From positions 1-47,495 of the IMG/VR virus record IMGVR_UViG_3300017705_001252: a stretch of 47,495 nt of DNA; one strand, 5' to 3'. Positions 14,925 through 45,328 of the stretch are shown here, one piece after another. Source of the DNA: a virus (Duplodnaviria > Caudoviricetes). The notes below the pieces were generated by a model. It made no database searches. It was not told where the DNA came from and saw nothing but the letters and a program-made list of their open reading frames with translations. Made by a program: the position numbers and the translations under genes. Numbering within the stretch: the first letter of the stretch is position 1; each line of letters begins with the position of its first letter.

Positions 14925-15263
14925 ATGCCACATTCCCGAATTACTATTTCTTACCAAGATCAACCGATCCGAATATACGGCCTGCCCGATGAGCCGGTTT
15001 TCAGATATCAGGACATAAGTGCTATACTGACTTCAAAAGAAAATGTATCGGTACATTTTTCACTAATACCCGAACTTGAGATATTCAATATTGATATCAA
15101 TAAAGAAGAAGTGCCTGTAGTTAATAACGCTGGTATCTATAAAATGATTTTTAATCCTCGTATCGAAAAAAATGTATCAATACATTTTGAGCGTTATTTT
15201 ATTGAAGAAGTTGAACCGGCGCTTAGAAAGTACGGTTATCCTGCAGAGAACAAATCCTGTTGA
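14925..15263 (+). CDS. BRO-N domain antirepressor-like protein
   Basis: IRIYG..DEPVF...DI..IL, VVNNAGIYKMIF, F.RY..EEV.PALRKYG motifs. Confidence 0.8.
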   Translation: MPHSRITISYQDQPIRIYGLPDEPVFRYQDISAILTSKENVSVHFSLIPELEIFNIDINKEEVPVVNNAGIYKMIFNPRIEKNVSIHFERYFIEEVEPALRKYGYPAENKSC

Positions 15264-16000
15264 GGCTTCCGGTAGTTCATTACCAGGATCTCCATTCTAC
15301 GGTTGTTTAAATTTCTCCGTATGCCTATTTCTTCCACAATCAGATCTCGTTCTTCAGCCTGCTCTAAAATGAAAGGATGATCGAATTCACTCATTGCCCA
15401 TTTAATTCCGGAATCCTGCAGTGTTTCAAATAACTCACTGGATAGTTCTTCGCTAAAACCCTGTGAGTAATTATTGGATGTATCGAGGTATGGAGGATCT
15501 GCATATACAAATGCCTTATCCCGATTTCCTTTTTCAATCTTCCGGAACACTTCTTTAAAATCAGAGCACATAAAATCTACATCATAGATCTGTTCATACA
15601 CCTTACGTAATCTGGAGAGTGCCAATTTCTTTGTATTCTTTGACGGGAACGAAAGCGTCTGCATTTGGCCGAGATAAGAAAAGTTACTTAGTACCAGGAA
15701 TCTTACTGCTCTCCAGACGGGATCGATAGGAACTCCTTTTTTCCATTCTTCCCAAAGCTTCTCATGTATCGGCGTAAAGAACAGGCAATCGTAGAGATCT
15801 TCCCACCGGCGTTGAATCATAATAAATAGATTGTACACTTCCTCATCCAAATCATTGAGGATGTTAAATTTCGCTTTAGGCTTGCTGAAAAACATCCCTC
15901 CGGCACCAAAGAAAGGTTCTATGTACAGATCGTGCTTTGGAAAAAGTGGGATGATTTTATGAGCTAATGCTCTTTTATTACCTAATCTGGTTAAGATCAT
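15236..16000 (-). CDS. dam: Dam-like (D12 class) DNA adenine methyltransferase
   Basis: GNK..LA, YIEPFFGAGG, LNDLD, YADPPY. Confidence 0.92.
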   Translation of the reverse strand: MILTRLGNKRALAHKIIPLFPKHDLYIEPFFGAGGMFFSKPKAKFNILNDLDEEVYNLFIMIQRRWEDLYDCLFFTPIHEKLWEEWKKGVPIDPVWRAVRFLVLSNFSYLGQMQTLSFPSKNTKKLALSRLRKVYEQIYDVDFMCSDFKEVFRKIEKGNRDKAFVYADPPYLDTSNNYSQGFSEELSSELFETLQDSGIKWAMSEFDHPFILEQAEERDLIVEEIGIRRNLNNRRMEILVMNYRKPQQDLFSAG

Positions 16001-16458
16001 TTATCAACATGATTTAAAATTGCGTCTTTAATTTCTTCAGTAGCTTCTGAGCTTAAGTACGCCCAAGGTCGAGCGGGTATGGTTACCTTTTTACCTCTAC
16101 CGGCTTGCCCTCCAAAATGATGAATGGCAGCATATACTTTATTAGTAGAAACCCCGGCTTCGGTTTTAGTACTGTATTCCTGGAGCGATCCTAGCAAGCC
16201 TGAACCTCTACCTTGGCGCTGCAGTATTTTTCCCGGCCATTTGTTTTCTTTTTCCCGGTCTTCAATCGTTGCCGGTGCTAGTTCTAACCAAGGTTCATCA
16301 TTTGGTCCTACTTCATCTTCAAAATGTTGGCCAATGTCAGAAAGTATAATTTCGGAGATCTCTGAAGTCAACTCATCGGTATCTTCCAGATTCGTTACCA
16401 TATTTGTGAACCGGGTTAAGGTGGTACCTAAATCGACTTTAATTTCAGAATCGCTCAT
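15997..16458 (-). CDS. Phage virion morphogenesis protein (Mu gpG-like)
   Basis: GP.D.PW.EL, NKVYAAIHHFGG, IPARP motifs. Confidence 0.9.
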   Translation of the reverse strand: MSDSEIKVDLGTTLTRFTNMVTNLEDTDELTSEISEIILSDIGQHFEDEVGPNDEPWLELAPATIEDREKENKWPGKILQRQGRGSGLLGSLQEYSTKTEAGVSTNKVYAAIHHFGGQAGRGKKVTIPARPWAYLSSEATEEIKDAILNHVDK

Positions 16459-16460
16459 AA

Positions 16461-16489
16461 TTGTAGATGAAGTTGGTTTTAGTTATTTT
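16461..16489 (+). promoter_or_regulatory. Putative sigma70 promoter for the small RNA
   Basis: TTGTAG, 17-bp spacer, TATTTT. Confidence 0.5.
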
Positions 16490-16495
16490 TAAGCA

Positions 16496-16620
16496 ATGCT
16501 TGTGGGAAAGAATCTCTCGGCGAATGCAAAGGAGCGTAACTCGGCGCTCGGAAGTTCGACATTGGTGATGGGAGCCCAATGCACAAGTTTTATAAGGAGG
16601 CCTCGAGAGCCTCTTTTTTT
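16496..16620 (+). ncRNA. Putative structured small RNA (multi-stem plus pseudoknot) downstream of the MuF-nuclease gene
   Basis: Four helices, a possible loop pairing, G-U wobbles that only work on the + strand, and its own candidate promoter and terminator. Confidence 0.65.
16597..16620 (+). terminator. Rho-independent terminator antisense to the head operon
   Basis: GAGGC-ctcgaga-GCCTC followed by T7. Confidence 0.75.
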
Positions 16621-16621
16621 A

Positions 16622-17815
16622 TTACAGCTCATCTTTAATTACCTCGCCTCTTTTTCTGATATTATCCACGGATTGTTGCTCAGCTCTTCTGAATGTTGTT
16701 AAATAAAGCTCATCCTTTTTAAGTGTAGCTTTCACTACGGTATAAAATTCCCGATCGGCTTTGTAGTAAAATACCAACGTTCTATCCGAATCTTTAACTA
16801 CTAATTGAGCATCTCTGTAAATCTTTTGGAGCCTTCTATAATCGGCCAGCTCCAGATCCGGATGTCTGATCAATTGCTTGGCCAAAGTATCGGCACTTAA
16901 TATCACTGTATGAGCATCGGCATTGATTGCTTTACGATACAGCTCAGGAAGTACTGCAACCGGGAATTGCTCCCTCGGCATTCTCTTTCTGATCTGAGCA
17001 AGGCTCAATCCCTGAGTTAGCAGATCATCAACTAAACTTCTGCTACGGCTATACATCACACTCAAGCCCTGGCCTTCAAGTGCAGCACTTACATATTTTT
17101 CGGCTAACTCTACAGAGAATGCATTCAGATCCGGTTGCCAATAACTTTGTCCGGGATTGTAATCCCAACCTTCGCCTGCAAAGTTCGGAATTTGATCACC
17201 AGTGGAAACCGTATATCCCCGAGCTTCTAATTGTTTATCAGAAAGCGAATCAACCCCGCAGCGACACCCCCAATCGTTAGGTGGATAGTGTGTATCCCAA
17301 AAAGGATCATCATGCCTTACAACGGTATTATGAAGTGCCTCATGCGAAGGTCGGGTTGATGCATCCTGAACTGCACGATACACCCACCAAGGTCGCCGTT
17401 CAGCTGCAGCCTTTTGTGTTTTGAATCTACCTGCAGAGTAAGAAGTGCTTAAATTTGTTCGATAGATATTTTTTAAACGCCAGGCAGAACCAAGTTGAAC
17501 ATCGAGGATCTCTCCGGTTTCTTGATCAACGATTTCTTTTCTTCCCCACCAACCTAGTTCCTTTAATTTCGGCTCCAGGTTCTTTTGAAAGGTTTCAAAG
17601 GTGGTTCCGTTGGCCAAAGCACTTTCCACCTCTTCCCGGATAGATTTCAGCACATCAAGGTTAATGGCCTTTGCCACAGTAAACGCCCGGGCATGCGCCT
17701 CTCTCTGCATCTCTCGCCAGTTCCATGTAATCTGATATCCTTTCGATTCAAATTGATTTATGATTTCCTCCGGAGGAGAATTTAAAAGTGCTGCTATGTC
17801 AATTCCTTCAGGCAT
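16622..17815 (-). CDS. Mu gpF (gp30) head morphogenesis protein with C-terminal PBECR-like nuclease domain
   Basis: AFTVAK, RL.NIYRTN, D..TRPSH, PPNDWGCRC MuF motifs; ~120-aa extension with ADTLAKQ..RHP and ELYLTTFRR. Confidence 0.88.
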   Translation of the reverse strand: MPEGIDIAALLNSPPEEIINQFESKGYQITWNWREMQREAHARAFTVAKAINLDVLKSIREEVESALANGTTFETFQKNLEPKLKELGWWGRKEIVDQETGEILDVQLGSAWRLKNIYRTNLSTSYSAGRFKTQKAAAERRPWWVYRAVQDASTRPSHEALHNTVVRHDDPFWDTHYPPNDWGCRCGVDSLSDKQLEARGYTVSTGDQIPNFAGEGWDYNPGQSYWQPDLNAFSVELAEKYVSAALEGQGLSVMYSRSRSLVDDLLTQGLSLAQIRKRMPREQFPVAVLPELYRKAINADAHTVILSADTLAKQLIRHPDLELADYRRLQKIYRDAQLVVKDSDRTLVFYYKADREFYTVVKATLKKDELYLTTFRRAEQQSVDNIRKRGEVIKDEL

Positions 17816-18110
17816 CTTCTGTTTGGTGCTCCAGTATTTTTATGCAATGATTTGGCAACCGGTAGACGGTGATCAGTATATTATCTTTAAATATGAATAC
17901 GTTCTGGCCGTAGATCTTGGCATTATCAGCCTCACATTCTTTAGCATATTGAGCCTTTAAATATCTCTGTAAAGCTCCGGTGGTTTCGGTTTCATCAATG
18001 CCTTGGTAAAACGCTCTCCACATCATTTTTTTGAGCACACTTTTATTCCAGCCAAGTCTTTCCTTAGCTCTTTTTTTAGCGTGTTTAGTTGAGTAGAGAG
18101 GTTTCATCAA
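17808..18110 (-). CDS. Hypothetical protein, possible BECR/DUF4258-like fold
   Basis: TKHAKKRAKER...FIF....LITVY pattern. Confidence 0.7.
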   Translation of the reverse strand: MMKPLYSTKHAKKRAKERLGWNKSVLKKMMWRAFYQGIDETETTGALQRYLKAQYAKECEADNAKIYGQNVFIFKDNILITVYRLPNHCIKILEHQTEDA

Positions 18111-18113
18111 AGC

Positions 18114-18488
18114 TTACTTTTTGTAGGTACCTTGCTTTCCTTCTTTGGCTCGTAACTGGCCACGCCGTTGTTGCCAGAGTAATGCTTCCTCAAGCTTGGT
18201 AATTGTCTGGCTGGTTTCTCTGGAAGGAACAAGGCTGTTCTTATATTTGAGATCATGGATCATCATTTCCATCAGAGATTCGTGGGTGATACCAATGAAA
18301 CTTGGAACTACTTCTTCTGTGATTTTTGAACCTCTCACGAAAACAATATGCTTATCGTAATCTTTATTATGGACTAAACCTTCACCTTCAATAACTTCGA
18401 AGCTTGGCAGATAATAGCTTACTCCATTTAATTCAATTTCAAAATCTCCGGGTTTGGTACTTTTTTTATTTTCGTTTTTCATAATCAT
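18114..18488 (-). CDS. tad1: Tad1-like (Acb2/Tad1 family) immune-signal sponge protein
   Basis: I.FVRG...GITHESLMEMMIHDL......PSRETS.TITKLEEALLW..RR...R...G..GT matches the Tad1 C-terminal pattern as recalled. Confidence 0.75.
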   Translation of the reverse strand: MIMKNENKKSTKPGDFEIELNGVSYYLPSFEVIEGEGLVHNKDYDKHIVFVRGSKITEEVVPSFIGITHESLMEMMIHDLKYKNSLVPSRETSQTITKLEEALLWQQRRGQLRAKEGKQGTYKK

Positions 18489-18766
18489 CTAATGTGTGTG
18501 AATGTTATTGGTTTTATCTGAGCCATAACTTTGCAGGCTTTGCGGTGTACCTCTTCCCAGGTATCCAGAATATCATCGTTGAACTCGTCCAGCTCCCGGG
18601 CTTCATCTAGTCGGTTCCATATCCGATCAATTTCATTAAAGTAATTTTCGTATTCGGTGGGATCTGATTCTTCCGGAAGAAAGGAATCCATCAACTCATC
18701 GTACCATTGAGCTAATTGGTAGGAGTAATTCAACCCCCGGAGTAAGCTTTCGATCATTTTAGACAT
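18485..18766 (-). CDS. Acidic hypothetical protein
   Basis: Coupled to the portal stop codon; D/E-rich, 93 aa. Confidence 0.7.
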   Translation of the reverse strand: MSKMIESLLRGLNYSYQLAQWYDELMDSFLPEESDPTEYENYFNEIDRIWNRLDEARELDEFNDDILDTWEEVHRKACKVMAQIKPITFTHIR

Positions 18767-42067: not shown

Positions 42068-45000
42068 ATGACTCTACTACAATACATTGATAATCTGAAC
42101 AAACAGTTTTCAACCGGAAGAGCACGAGAACATAGCTATCGCTCTGATTTACAAACACTGCTTAGTACGTTGTTACCTGAAATTTTGGTAACTAATGAAC
42201 CTTCCAGGAGTGAAGTGGGTGCTCCTGATTACATCCTCACAAAAGGAAATATTCCGGTCGGCTATATAGAAGCAAAAGATATTGATGATGGGGATCTGGA
42301 TGGAAAAAAGAAAAATAAAGAGCAATTTAATCGCTACAAATCCGGATTACCGAATTTAATTTTTACCGATTATCTGGATTTCCATTTCTACAAAGATGGG
42401 GAGAAAACTACAACCATTAAAATTGCTGAAGTTGTTGATGGTGAAATTGTTGCGATACCTAAAAACTTCGACACTTTTAAAAATCTGATCAAAGATTTTT
42501 CTCAACAAGTAAGCCAAACTATACGCTCTTCCTCACGACTTTCTAAAATGATGGCGGGGAAAGCACGGATTCTTGCTGATGTAATTGAAAAGGCATTAAA
42601 TGTTGATGAAGAATCGCAAAAGAATCAGGTTAATTCTGCAGCTAACAACACACTCAGAGAACAGCTTACCGCTTTCCAAAATGTACTGATTGCCGATATT
42701 AAACCGAAAGAGTTTGGAGACATCTACGCCCAAACAATTGCCTATGGAATGTTCGCCGCACGCTTGCACGATCCGACTTTGGAAACCTTCTCCCGACAAG
42801 AAGCCGCCGAACTGATTCCGAAATCTAATCCTTTTTTGCGGAAGTTATTCCAATACATTGCAGGCTATGATCTGGATGATCGAATTATTTGGATAGTGGA
42901 TGGTTTGGCTGATATTTTCAGAGCTACGGATGTTGAAGGCTTGTTGAAAAATTTTGGGAAAAGTACTCAGCAACACGATCCTATCATTCATTTTTACGAA
43001 ACCTTTTTGGCAGAATACGATCCCAAACTTCGTAAAAGTCGTGGAGTGTGGTACACGCCCGAGCCGGTAGTAAATTTTATAGTACGTGCCGTTGATGATA
43101 TTCTTAAAGACGAATTTGGATTGAAAGATGGACTGGCCGACACTTCTAAAACTAAAATTAAAGTAAAAGTACCAACACACGACAAGCGCCATAAAGACGG
43201 AATGGTGGAAGAAGAGCGAGAAGTACACCGTGTGCAAATTTTAGATCCTGCTACCGGTACAGGAACCTTTTTAGCCGAGGTGATCAAACAGATTTATACC
43301 AAGTTTGAAGGACAGCAAGGCATCTGGACTAAATATGTAGAAGAGCACTTAATTCCTCGATTGAATGGCTTTGAAATTTTAATGGCGAGTTATGCCATGG
43401 CACATTTAAAGCTGGATTTGCTGTTGCAAGAAACCGGGTACAATGCTTCTGCCTCCGGAGCTTCAAACCAGCGTTTTAAGGTTTATCTCACCAATTCTTT
43501 AGAAGAACACCATCCCAATTCGGGAACTCTATTTGCCAATTGGTTGAGTGAAGAAGCCAACGAAGCCAATCACATAAAACGGGACGCACCTGTAATGGTT
43601 GTAATGGGAAATCCGCCTTATTCTGGTGAAAGCTCCAATAAAGGAGACTGGATTATGGATTTAATGGAGGACTATAAAAGAGAACATACTGGTGCTAAGC
43701 TAAAAGAGCATAATATTAAATTTGTAAATGATGACTACGTAAAATTTATAAGATACAGTCAATCGGTTATTGACAGAAATGAAGATGGTATTTTGGCTTT
43801 TATAACAAATCACAATTTTCTAAATAATCCCACATTTAGAGGTATGAGGTGGAGTTTAATAAACTCATTTAATGACATATACCTTATAGATCTTCATGGG
43901 AATTCATTCAGAGGGGAAATTATACCAGATAACATCAATAAGGATGAAAATGTATTTGATATTAGAACCGGAGTATCAATTATTATTGCTGTAAAAAGAA
44001 AAAAAGATAAGAAATTAGCAAAAGTAAGATTATTAGATTTGTATGGTTCAAGAGAAATAAAGTATAATTTTTTAATTAATAAAGATTTAAAAAAGATTGA
44101 ATTTGAAAACATTGATCTAAATAAACCCAACTTTTATTTCAAAAAATTTAATCAAAACTTAAAAATTAGGTATCAGAAAGGACTAAGTGTTATAGATTTT
44201 TTTAAAACTTATTCGCTTGGTATTCTTACAAAAAACGATTCAATATGTATTTCCTTTTCGAATCAAGAATTGATTAAAACCTTAACTGATTTTAAAGAAA
44301 TAAATTCTGACGAGTTAAGAACAAAATACAACATTAAACCAGATTCTAGAGATTGGAAACTTAACAATGCAATTGAAGATGTAATAAAAAATTGGAATAA
44401 AGACTCTATTAAAAAGGTATCATATAGACCATTTGATGATCGATATACATTTATAAGTGGGGAATCAAAAGGTTTTATTGCATATCCACAGAAGAAAATT
44501 TCTTTACCTATTGAACAAGAAAGCAATCTTGGTTTAATACTTACAAGGCAACTTGCAAGTTTACCTTTCTATCATGCTTTTGTTGCTAATAAAATTTCTG
44601 AGCAATGCTATATGTCGGGAAGGTCAAGAGAGGGTGGTACTGTTTTTCCACTCTACCTCTATCCCGAAGAAAGCGGGCAACAAACGTTGGCTGGGAAACC
44701 CGAACGTATTCCCAATTTAGATAAGAAAATCCTTAAAGACATTGAAGAGAAGTTAGGATTGAAGTTTGTTCCTGAGAAAGAAAAAGACAAATCTACTTTC
44801 GCTCCTATCGACTTGCTCGATTATATTTATGCGGTACTACATTCCCCGAGCTATCGAGAAAAGTACAAAGAATTTCTAAAGATCGACTTTCCCAGAGTTC
44901 CCTATCCGTTAGAACAAGATAAATTTTGGGAGTTAGTAAAGCTGGGAGGTGAGCTTCGTCAAATTCATTTATTGGAAGCCGAGGTAATTGAAAAGCCTAT

Positions 45001-45328
45001 AACATCTTATCCAAAAGATGGGGATAATGTAGTAACCAATCGTATTACAAAGAATGATCCGGGATTTGTAGAAGATGAAAGTAATCCCGATTTCGGTAAA
45101 GTTTGGATTAATGAGACACAATATTTCGATAAAGTACCGCTCTTAGCTTGGGAGTTTTATATTGGTGGTTATCAACCTGCTCAAAAATGGCTCAAAGATC
45201 GTAGAGATAGAGAACTCAGCATTGAAGATATTATGCACTATCAGAAGATTATTGTTGCATTGACAGAAACTGATAGAATAATGAAATTGATTGATGACAT
45301 TGGAGTAGTTATTACGAATGAATCATAG
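42068..45328 (+). CDS. Single-chain type IIG/ISP-like restriction-modification enzyme (PD-ExK nuclease, N6-adenine MTase, specificity domain)
   Basis: PDY...GYIEAK, LDPATGTGTFL, GNPPY, FLKIDFPRVP, IGGYQP..KWLKDR. Confidence 0.9.
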   Translation: MTLLQYIDNLNKQFSTGRAREHSYRSDLQTLLSTLLPEILVTNEPSRSEVGAPDYILTKGNIPVGYIEAKDIDDGDLDGKKKNKEQFNRYKSGLPNLIFTDYLDFHFYKDGEKTTTIKIAEVVDGEIVAIPKNFDTFKNLIKDFSQQVSQTIRSSSRLSKMMAGKARILADVIEKALNVDEESQKNQVNSAANNTLREQLTAFQNVLIADIKPKEFGDIYAQTIAYGMFAARLHDPTLETFSRQEAAELIPKSNPFLRKLFQYIAGYDLDDRIIWIVDGLADIFRATDVEGLLKNFGKSTQQHDPIIHFYETFLAEYDPKLRKSRGVWYTPEPVVNFIVRAVDDILKDEFGLKDGLADTSKTKIKVKVPTHDKRHKDGMVEEEREVHRVQILDPATGTGTFLAEVIKQIYTKFEGQQGIWTKYVEEHLIPRLNGFEILMASYAMAHLKLDLLLQETGYNASASGASNQRFKVYLTNSLEEHHPNSGTLFANWLSEEANEANHIKRDAPVMVVMGNPPYSGESSNKGDWIMDLMEDYKREHTGAKLKEHNIKFVNDDYVKFIRYSQSVIDRNEDGILAFITNHNFLNNPTFRGMRWSLINSFNDIYLIDLHGNSFRGEIIPDNINKDENVFDIRTGVSIIIAVKRKKDKKLAKVRLLDLYGSREIKYNFLINKDLKKIEFENIDLNKPNFYFKKFNQNLKIRYQKGLSVIDFFKTYSLGILTKNDSICISFSNQELIKTLTDFKEINSDELRTKYNIKPDSRDWKLNNAIEDVIKNWNKDSIKKVSYRPFDDRYTFISGESKGFIAYPQKKISLPIEQESNLGLILTRQLASLPFYHAFVANKISEQCYMSGRSREGGTVFPLYLYPEESGQQTLAGKPERIPNLDKKILKDIEEKLGLKFVPEKEKDKSTFAPIDLLDYIYAVLHSPSYREKYKEFLKIDFPRVPYPLEQDKFWELVKLGGELRQIHLLEAEVIEKPITSYPKDGDNVVTNRITKNDPGFVEDESNPDFGKVWINETQYFDKVPLLAWEFYIGGYQPAQKWLKDRRDRELSIEDIMHYQKIIVALTETDRIMKLIDDIGVVITNES

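Follow-up and report, generated by a model that had tools for sequence, protein, structure and literature searches.

Behind 89.4% of MuF polymorphic toxin genes lies a downstream immunity ORF (PMC5576092), and the locus studied here raises the question of what may take its place where such a gene is missing. In the window, as we call the whole stretch of 47,495 nucleotides that was analysed, the gene of a MuF head protein ends in a predicted nuclease domain. Unlike in the MuF polymorphic toxins, no conserved immunity ORF follows, and the slot holds a non-coding RNA. A sequence-only reading of this DNA had suggested that the RNA is the antitoxin or partner of the nuclease domain.

Setting of the gpF gene

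The window represents a Mu-like prophage region with genes for a Mu transposase, an AAA protein, Gam, GemA, terminase, Portal_Mu, gpF and gpG, and the closest named relatives of its gpF come from Balneola/Balneolaceae. The minor head protein gpF (397 amino acids; 16622..17815, minus strand) matches Phage_Mu_F at residues 58-187 (PF04233, E 1.6e-27), and gpG (15997..16458, minus strand) was assigned to Phage_tail_S by Pfam. Between the two genes lies a gap of 163 nt which carries the structured RNA on the plus strand, the predicted RNA promoter being located just upstream of the gpG start on the opposite strand. A MuF domain with a C-terminal extension, accompanied by portal, terminase, Mu transposase, Gam and GemA genes, resembles the MuF polymorphic toxins of Jamet et al. 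(2017, PMC5576092), which combine a MuF N-terminus with a variable C-terminal effector in the head module of temperate phages. The Ct_MAD extensions described in that article were left without explanation (PMC5576092).

A structured RNA with two pseudoknots

The RNA of about 123 nt (16498..16620, plus strand) is defined by covariation. Its closing helix P1 (16498-504/16582-88) is stacked directly on P4 (16560-65/16576-81), and two further helices, P2 (16521-25/16554-58) and P3 (16532-36/16545-49), are followed on the 3' side by a hairpin (16594-16616) with a U7 tail, the whole 3' element extending over 16594..16620. Two pseudoknots are present: PK1 pairs CUCUC with GGGAG (16514-18/16570-74), and PK2 is a kissing loop between the P3 loop CUCGG (16540-44) and the loop UCGAG of the 3' hairpin (16603-07). 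All of these elements are on the plus strand. On recheck, the helix, pseudoknot and gap coordinates of the sequence-only reading were all correct; PK2 is a second pseudoknot that was missing from it.

A protein search gathered 203 loci, 13 of which carry the RNA subfamily of the window (subfamily B). When these 13 loci and the window (14 sequences) were aligned plainly with MAFFT, unfitted to any structure, 98.8% of the 168 cells in P1 and PK1 were paired, compared with 20-68% in slid controls; this signal was reached by none of 500 shuffles, which ignore relatedness. The covariation sought for the RNA is thus present, with nine of the 12 P1 and PK1 pairs being compensatory. Over all helices, 93.7% of the cells were paired and 23 of 36 pairs were compensatory in an alignment of 14 distinct sequences that had been fitted to the nested helices and not to the pseudoknots. 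PK1, initially described as a possible pseudoknot, is 100% paired and occurs with the compensatory variants CUCGC/GCGAG and CUGGA/UCCAG. PK2 is also 100% paired, both among the 14 distinct sequences, where three of its five pairs are compensatory, and in a set of six sequences; its variants are CCCGG/CCGGG, CCUGG/CCAGG, CCUGA/UCAGG and CCCGA/UCGGG. The nested helices fared unequally in the covariation alignment: P1, P3 and P4 hold, but P2 is weak (71.7% paired) and has one pair broken in a close relative, in which a U-G pair of PK1 is changed to C-G and the 3' end of gpF has diverged. Likewise, the hairpin and U7 stretch named as a terminator are there and may serve as an intrinsic one, but the hairpin is part of the fold via PK2 and the U-tract is absent from several relatives.

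Single-sequence folding of the window RNA was no better than that of shuffles on either strand (z -0.5). Rfam gave only chance-level matches in the window and none at gathering score there or in 20 related loci, so that no characterised family with another role, a possibility considered at the outset, was matched. A literature search yielded no paper describing these RNAs; subscription literature was thinly covered in it, so an earlier mention is possible. We conclude that the structured RNA family is real and is without a prior description that we could find.

Model R1 recovered eight members outside its training set (above 22 bits), all of them at gpF 3' ends and on the opposite strand. A second subfamily, A, shares P1, P4 and PK1 with subfamily B, contains a CUCCC loop closed by a stem and is devoid of the 3' hairpin. 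A third type of RNA, unlike A and B, was seen behind own-family domains at eight loci (L002, L032, L100, L101, L104, L105, L107, L114). At another locus (L286:1482-1665) two RNA variants stand in tandem behind one gpF gene, which is frameshifted or mis-assembled; the pseudoknot of the second variant is compensated (CUCCG/CGGAG).

Orientation and promoter of the RNA

Read on the plus strand, P1, PK1, P3, PK2 and P4 comprise 19 G-U cells and only five unpaired cells in 14 sequences, and relatives possess GAAA, GCAA or cUUCGg loops on the same strand. Because of these G-U cells and stable tetraloops, the RNA is assigned to the strand opposite to gpF, as had been proposed. A strand count in alignment A9 gave 66 G-U versus 12 A-C, a ratio dominated by one invariant U-G pair and given no weight here.

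The claim of a promoter TTGTAG-17-TATTTT (16461..16489, plus strand) stands in part. The position of its -10 box TATTTT is homologous to that of the TATAAT/TATACT boxes of relatives, but the predicted promoter is weak (7.3 bits) and was missed by a promoter scan, which flagged TCGACT-17-CATAAT (16433-16461, plus strand) as an alternative. With a sigma-70-like matrix, and with intergenic base composition contributing to the scores, the best antisense signals behind intact domains averaged 9.0 bits in the own family, 10.1 bits in the MuF_C clade and 9.4 bits for PBECR2 domains, as compared with 4.8 and 4.1 bits behind short and decayed gpF, respectively.

The gap had been described as lacking a credible ORF, and no conserved ORF was found in it. 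A peptide starting from ATG 16496 (68-codon ORF) was considered and rejected, as the frame is open for only 24 codons in L111, the closest relative, and L088 does not have it.

The C-terminal domain of gpF

Residues 281-397 of gpF (117 amino acids; 16625..16975, minus strand) are predicted to form a BECR-fold domain whose active site would consist of His318 and a Thr/Ser of the last strand. In Pfam, the match to PBECR3 (PF18812) is weak and fails the test (E 2.8e-4, 21.2 bits, curated cut-off 30 bits), the relatives of the domain score 20-26 bits, and the LPD13 score is also weak and below cut-off. The AlphaFold model of the domain (pLDDT 93.5) displays the pre-alpha helix, helix and meandering beta-sheet of the colicin-like BECR fold and aligns with BrnT (Z 7.3, rmsd 2.6, 74 residues aligned), CdiA-NC101 (Z 6.4, rmsd 2.8, 76 aligned) and colicin D tRNase (Z 5.8, rmsd 3.4, 84 aligned). 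These structural matches agree with the BECR-type fold assigned earlier, the support being moderate because all Z scores are under 8. Foldseek gave no match for the domain at E up to 0.001, the best being BrnT (E 2.7e-3), and the domain profile had no meaningful match among the sequences of solved structures.

Both H318, located in the pre-alpha helix, and T373 are retained without exception in 10 homologues, as is typical for colicin-like BECR active sites. This pattern fits the active site of PBECR domains, which is formed by a His in the pre-alpha helix and a C-terminal Thr/Ser (PMC5512222). By fold, by these residues and by the fusion to MuF, the domain is like the PBECR/MuF-C domains of Iyer et al. 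(2017, PMC5512222); it differs from them, as described in the part of that work available to us, by its partner RNA and by scores under the Pfam cut-offs. PBECRs have been placed in the colicin-like BECR group, whose characterised members usually target tRNA (bioRxiv 10.64898/2026.08.28.747851). In one subclade Arg substitutes for the His, with L007, L173, L093 and L102 being Arg members that bear the RNA. Among isolated phages, four records were weakly matched by the domain of the window and none by that of L096; in B23, an isolated phage with a weak domain match, the His is absent and no RNA-like element is evident by eye.

The last 176 nt of gpF (16657-16834) have strongly diverged in a close relative, the flanks being about 95% identical, and P0003 looks alike. 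This suggests that the C-terminal half of the gpF domain has been swapped.

The RNA accompanies intact predicted nuclease domains

Among dereplicated rows with approximate gene starts, a gap of at least 79 nt from gpF to gpG was found in 37 of the 39 measurable own-family rows; in 11 further rows gpG was not found. The two gapless rows (L108, L110) have neither His nor Arg at the active-site position. Short gpF genes were followed by a gap of that size in seven of 31 rows and by less than 50 nt in the other 24, so that the gap is mostly missing behind short or decayed gpF. When the search started from the RNA pattern, 80 of 120 viral loci were examined and 50 were confirmed by model R2 (at least 33 bits). 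The domain was present within 1.5 kb at 42 of these, three were truncated, one had a PBECR2-type gpF and four had no nuclease nearby. The expected co-occurrence with BECR-type gpF was thus seen from either side. The same pattern gave four new matches in 802 genomes, three of them adjoining a gpF with the domain and one an orphan. Behind ADP-ribosyltransferase-type and other non-BECR gpF tails the gaps measured 216-819 nt and read as coding, or gpG was not found, and the antisense promoter signal was absent from these gaps.

Four subfamily-A RNAs on viral contigs (L232, L244, L279, L305), near which a nuclease gene was not found, are possible cases of orphan immunity carried by phages.

The pairing of RNA and domain is not exclusive. 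Domains that are 64% identical (L008 and L009) carry RNAs of different subfamilies, A and B, and at L290 a subfamily-A RNA is paired with a PBECR2 domain. Cognate specificity therefore looks loose, which argues against a strict lock-and-key relationship.

The RNA is kept where gpG is absent or inverted (L092, L095, L096, L099, L009), and a cis element of gpG is rejected on this ground. This distribution also bears on the idea that the RNA controls its neighbours in cis or as an antisense transcript, by silencing gpF and gpG, whether through converging transcription or through annealing to the late mRNA, or by acting as an element on that mRNA itself. The promoter is indeed convergent to the late operon, at the start of gpG, and complementarity between the RNA and the intergenic mRNA is complete. 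We nevertheless regard such control as very improbable: besides persisting with gpG missing or inverted, the RNA occurs as orphans far from gpF, its overlap with the reading frame of the toxin is minimal, and antisense action would not need two covarying pseudoknots. At three loci (L009, L198, L202) the inverted gpG converges on gpF across the RNA.

The MuF_C sister clade, PBECR2-type gpF and phage Mu

The MuF_C domain is homologous to that of the window (hhalign probability 93.8%, with the His aligned). Its 45 rows fall into 33 with a gap and 12 with none, and the HADSxKH motif is decayed in 12 of 12 gapless rows, L031 keeping the second of two His residues. A tree of the 45 rows from which the domain was excluded requires six changes, at least four of them forced by strong branches; with the domain included, five changes are needed. 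RNA and predicted active-site motif appear to have been lost together four to six times independently in this clade, phage Mu included. In Mu itself, gp30 overlaps gp31 by 4 nt and the HADSxKH motif is absent; gp30 has been classed as an inactive PBECR (PMC5512222). That the RNA is kept together with the predicted catalytic residues, and has repeatedly disappeared with them, indicates that it is needed only as long as the domain is active.

The RNA on the antisense strand of the MuF_C loci resembles tRNA (RF00005) in having an acceptor stem, a D arm and a T arm, and is unlike it in its aberrant anticodon arm. Copies are found behind intact gpF on the minus strand (L017:3832-3910, L065:3829-3901, L134, L159 and about 30 more) and are lost in decayed lineages. 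At a 90% threshold, ARAGORN called 24 of 33 antisense sequences, none in sense direction, none after shuffling and none of 15 decayed loci; with default settings two of 21 loci were called. The T-loop motif is present in 31 of 33 intact versus none of 12 decayed loci, and the Rfam tRNA model (RF00005) scores 35-46 bits in four of 12 MuF_C loci. In the RNA family of the window, ARAGORN found none of 47 gaps to be tRNA-like at the 90% threshold, so that substrate mimicry there would be a matter of topology only: the window RNA shares with tRNA at most a closing stem stacked on a short 3' arm and a loop-loop contact, and is not recognised as a cloverleaf with D-loop and T-loop consensus.

The tRNA mimicry of the MuF_C clade would also suit a sacrificial substrate or timer, that is, an RNA which is cleaved by the domain in the course of competition or processing and forms no stable inhibited complex with it. 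The 3' U-tract is missing in many members, whose 3' end may accordingly arise by processing. The aberrant anticodon arms and the burial of the P3 loop in PK2 rather resemble protection from cleavage, and we hold this explanation to be improbable. It overlaps with that of an antitoxin, and the two are inseparable by sequence.

Of the PBECR2 rows, 14 of 15 have a gap of at least 79 nt. The gapless exception (L067) appears by eye to be without the PBECR2 motif, and at L062 an intact-looking PBECR2 domain is followed by an ORF instead of an evident RNA. An antisense promoter together with an apparent structured RNA of other folds was observed behind PBECR2-type gpF genes at L022, L041, L057, L116, L117, L122, L148, L152, L169, L178 and L179.

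Phage phi29 possesses a packaging RNA (pRNA) whose kissing loops form a ring on the portal. The two loop-loop pairings of our RNA and its position in the head module, beside a portal-associated protein, bring a comparable role in packaging or assembly to mind. This is hardly credible, given that the RNA is missing from Mu and from short-gpF phages, which still package their DNA, that it tracks nuclease residues and not portal or terminase, and that orphans exist in hosts.

Orphan RNAs beside bacterial defence genes

Model R1 matched three of 151 genomes in a phylum sample and five of 151 in a family sample around genome G002. Apart from the prophage copies, RNAs without gpF occupy six independent sites, five of which adjoin defence or TA genes, a count made with no background control and in genomes that are perhaps incomplete. 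One orphan (L210:1501-1624, in G002) immediately follows the degenerate repeat that closes a type I-B CRISPR array and lies on the sense strand of this repeat; 41 repeats were counted, and cas4, cas1, cas6b and cas3 adjoin. The same genome also holds two prophage copies of the matching gene pair. Other copies are situated behind an MmeI-like gene (L213), ahead of a type III Mod gene (L227), at the end of an island that contains PAPS-reductase and AAA genes (presumably Dnd-like) as well as HNH and Fic genes (L212), and, for a subfamily-A RNA, in front of HicAB (L375). L211 and L226 share one common site behind a gene named ribonucleotide-reductase-like from its sequence; the gene beside them, for which Pfam gave no match, we take from its sequence to be a RAYT. 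Neither the domain nor Phage_Mu_F was found in the possibly incomplete assemblies of G050, G066, G231, G237 and G818; G001 and G002 were positive in the same search. Subfamily-B orphans have retained both pseudoknots, some through compensatory changes. The location of orphan copies beside host defence genes supports action in trans, which is also indicated by the existence of orphans together with the independence from gpG.

The orphans are likewise relevant to the possibility that the RNA is a cofactor or guide, and that domain and RNA are packaged and delivered as an active ribonucleoprotein directed, for example, against crRNA or defence RNAs. Strict co-retention and co-loss would suit any obligate partnership, crRNA has been proposed as a possible PBECR target (PMC5512222), and those members which have Arg instead of His but still carry the RNA may be binding proteins and not nucleases. 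However, a variable guide segment is not evident, the pseudoknot partners covary internally, hosts retain orphan RNAs without the protein, and the promoter points away from the late operon. We therefore consider a cofactor or guide unlikely.

Relationship to known systems

A predicted endoribonuclease with an adjacent pseudoknotted RNA, here with two covarying pseudoknots, is reminiscent of type III TA systems such as ToxIN, CptIN and TenpIN or, in a wider sense, AbiF and AvcID (PMC12283969). In classical type III systems the antitoxin consists of tandem repeats, flanked by promoter and terminator, that precede the toxin gene within the same operon (PMC12283969). By contrast, the present RNA is single-copy, lies downstream on the opposite strand and has its own predicted promoter. 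Furthermore, the predicted toxin, a BECR domain joined to a virion head protein, is related by Pfam to MuF and, weakly, to PBECR3/LPD13, with BECR proteins as best folds, and does not belong to the ToxN, CptN or TenpN families. Finally, different domain families are accompanied by RNAs of several unrelated folds. The analogy with type III TA thus seems good for the mechanism, not for the gene layout.

The DUF3800-, drum- and skipping-rope RNA motifs (Weinberg et al. 2017, PMC5737381) offer another parallel, as many dissimilar RNAs occur per domain, in either orientation and frequently with a terminator. The protein partner described there is a different one, and the RNAs reported here are without an Rfam match.

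Proposed function

The loss of the RNA with decay of the domain, and its presence on its own beside defence genes, make an RNA antidote likely, and a decoy is suggested by the combination of tRNA mimicry with a colicin-like fold. Judging from the sequence comparisons, we consider it probable that the RNA is a trans-acting antitoxin, most likely a substrate decoy, which replaces the protein immunity gene of a predicted virion-borne nuclease. With the same degree of confidence we favour an antitoxin over a cofactor, a cleaved substrate, antisense control or a packaging RNA. Several findings weigh against it: the loose cognate specificity, the RNA-bearing members with Arg, the cases of L062 and L031, the lack of tRNA likeness in the RNA family of the window, the modest fold scores, the PBECR3 score below cut-off and the weak promoter.

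According to this model gpF would be contained in the head and enter the cell along with the phage DNA, as is established for MuF/PBECR proteins (PMC5512222). The colicin-like BECR domain would then cut host RNA, most likely tRNA. Having a promoter of its own on the other strand would make the RNA independent of late transcription; as this predicted promoter is of host type and opposite to the late operon, the RNA may be present in the lysogen, just after DNA entry and during virion assembly. We envisage a compact RNA with P1 on P4, locked by PK1 and PK2, that would act as a decoy by filling the active site; in the MuF_C clade the decoy would be recognisable as a tRNA mimic whose anticodon arm is aberrant. 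Bacteria capturing the RNA alone may gain immunity to the delivered nuclease.

More tentatively, and with somewhat greater doubt than belief on our part, these elements may be combined into a form of addiction on entry. Mu-like phages would inject a tRNA-cutting head protein that is disarmed only by a decoy RNA encoded on the incoming DNA, so that destruction of this DNA by CRISPR or restriction would leave the nuclease live. Decoys would have evolved on several occasions, in one case out of a genuine tRNA and in another as an RNA with a double kissing loop, and bacteria would capture orphan decoys next to CRISPR or restriction loci as RNA-only immunity.

If true, the antitoxin model would account for those C-terminal extensions of Mu-type gpF proteins that are unassigned, the missing immunity ORFs and the inactivity of phage Mu's own domain. 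The range of RNA antitoxins would then reach beyond cytoplasmic TA operons to polymorphic toxins delivered by virions, natural inhibitors of tRNases that mimic tRNA would become available, and orphan copies would constitute a class of defence genes that is invisible to protein-based searches. The domain/RNA pair is small (117 amino acids and 123 nt).

Other features of the window

The head genes are on the minus strand, and the protease and capsid genes from 23096 onwards run the opposite way. A D12-class adenine methyltransferase gene (15236-16000, minus strand) immediately follows gpG. The Mu-like genes are flanked by a tyrosine integrase and a type ISP restriction-modification gene (1-1251 and 42068-45325, plus strand), so non-Mu DNA is probably included at both ends of the record. 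Between portal and gpF, a small gene (18114-18488, minus strand) is bordered on both sides by ORFs of unknown kind (17808-18110 and 18485-18766). Its product shows a weak match to the Acb2/Tad1 hairpin (E 0.008) and is possibly an anti-defence nucleotide sponge.
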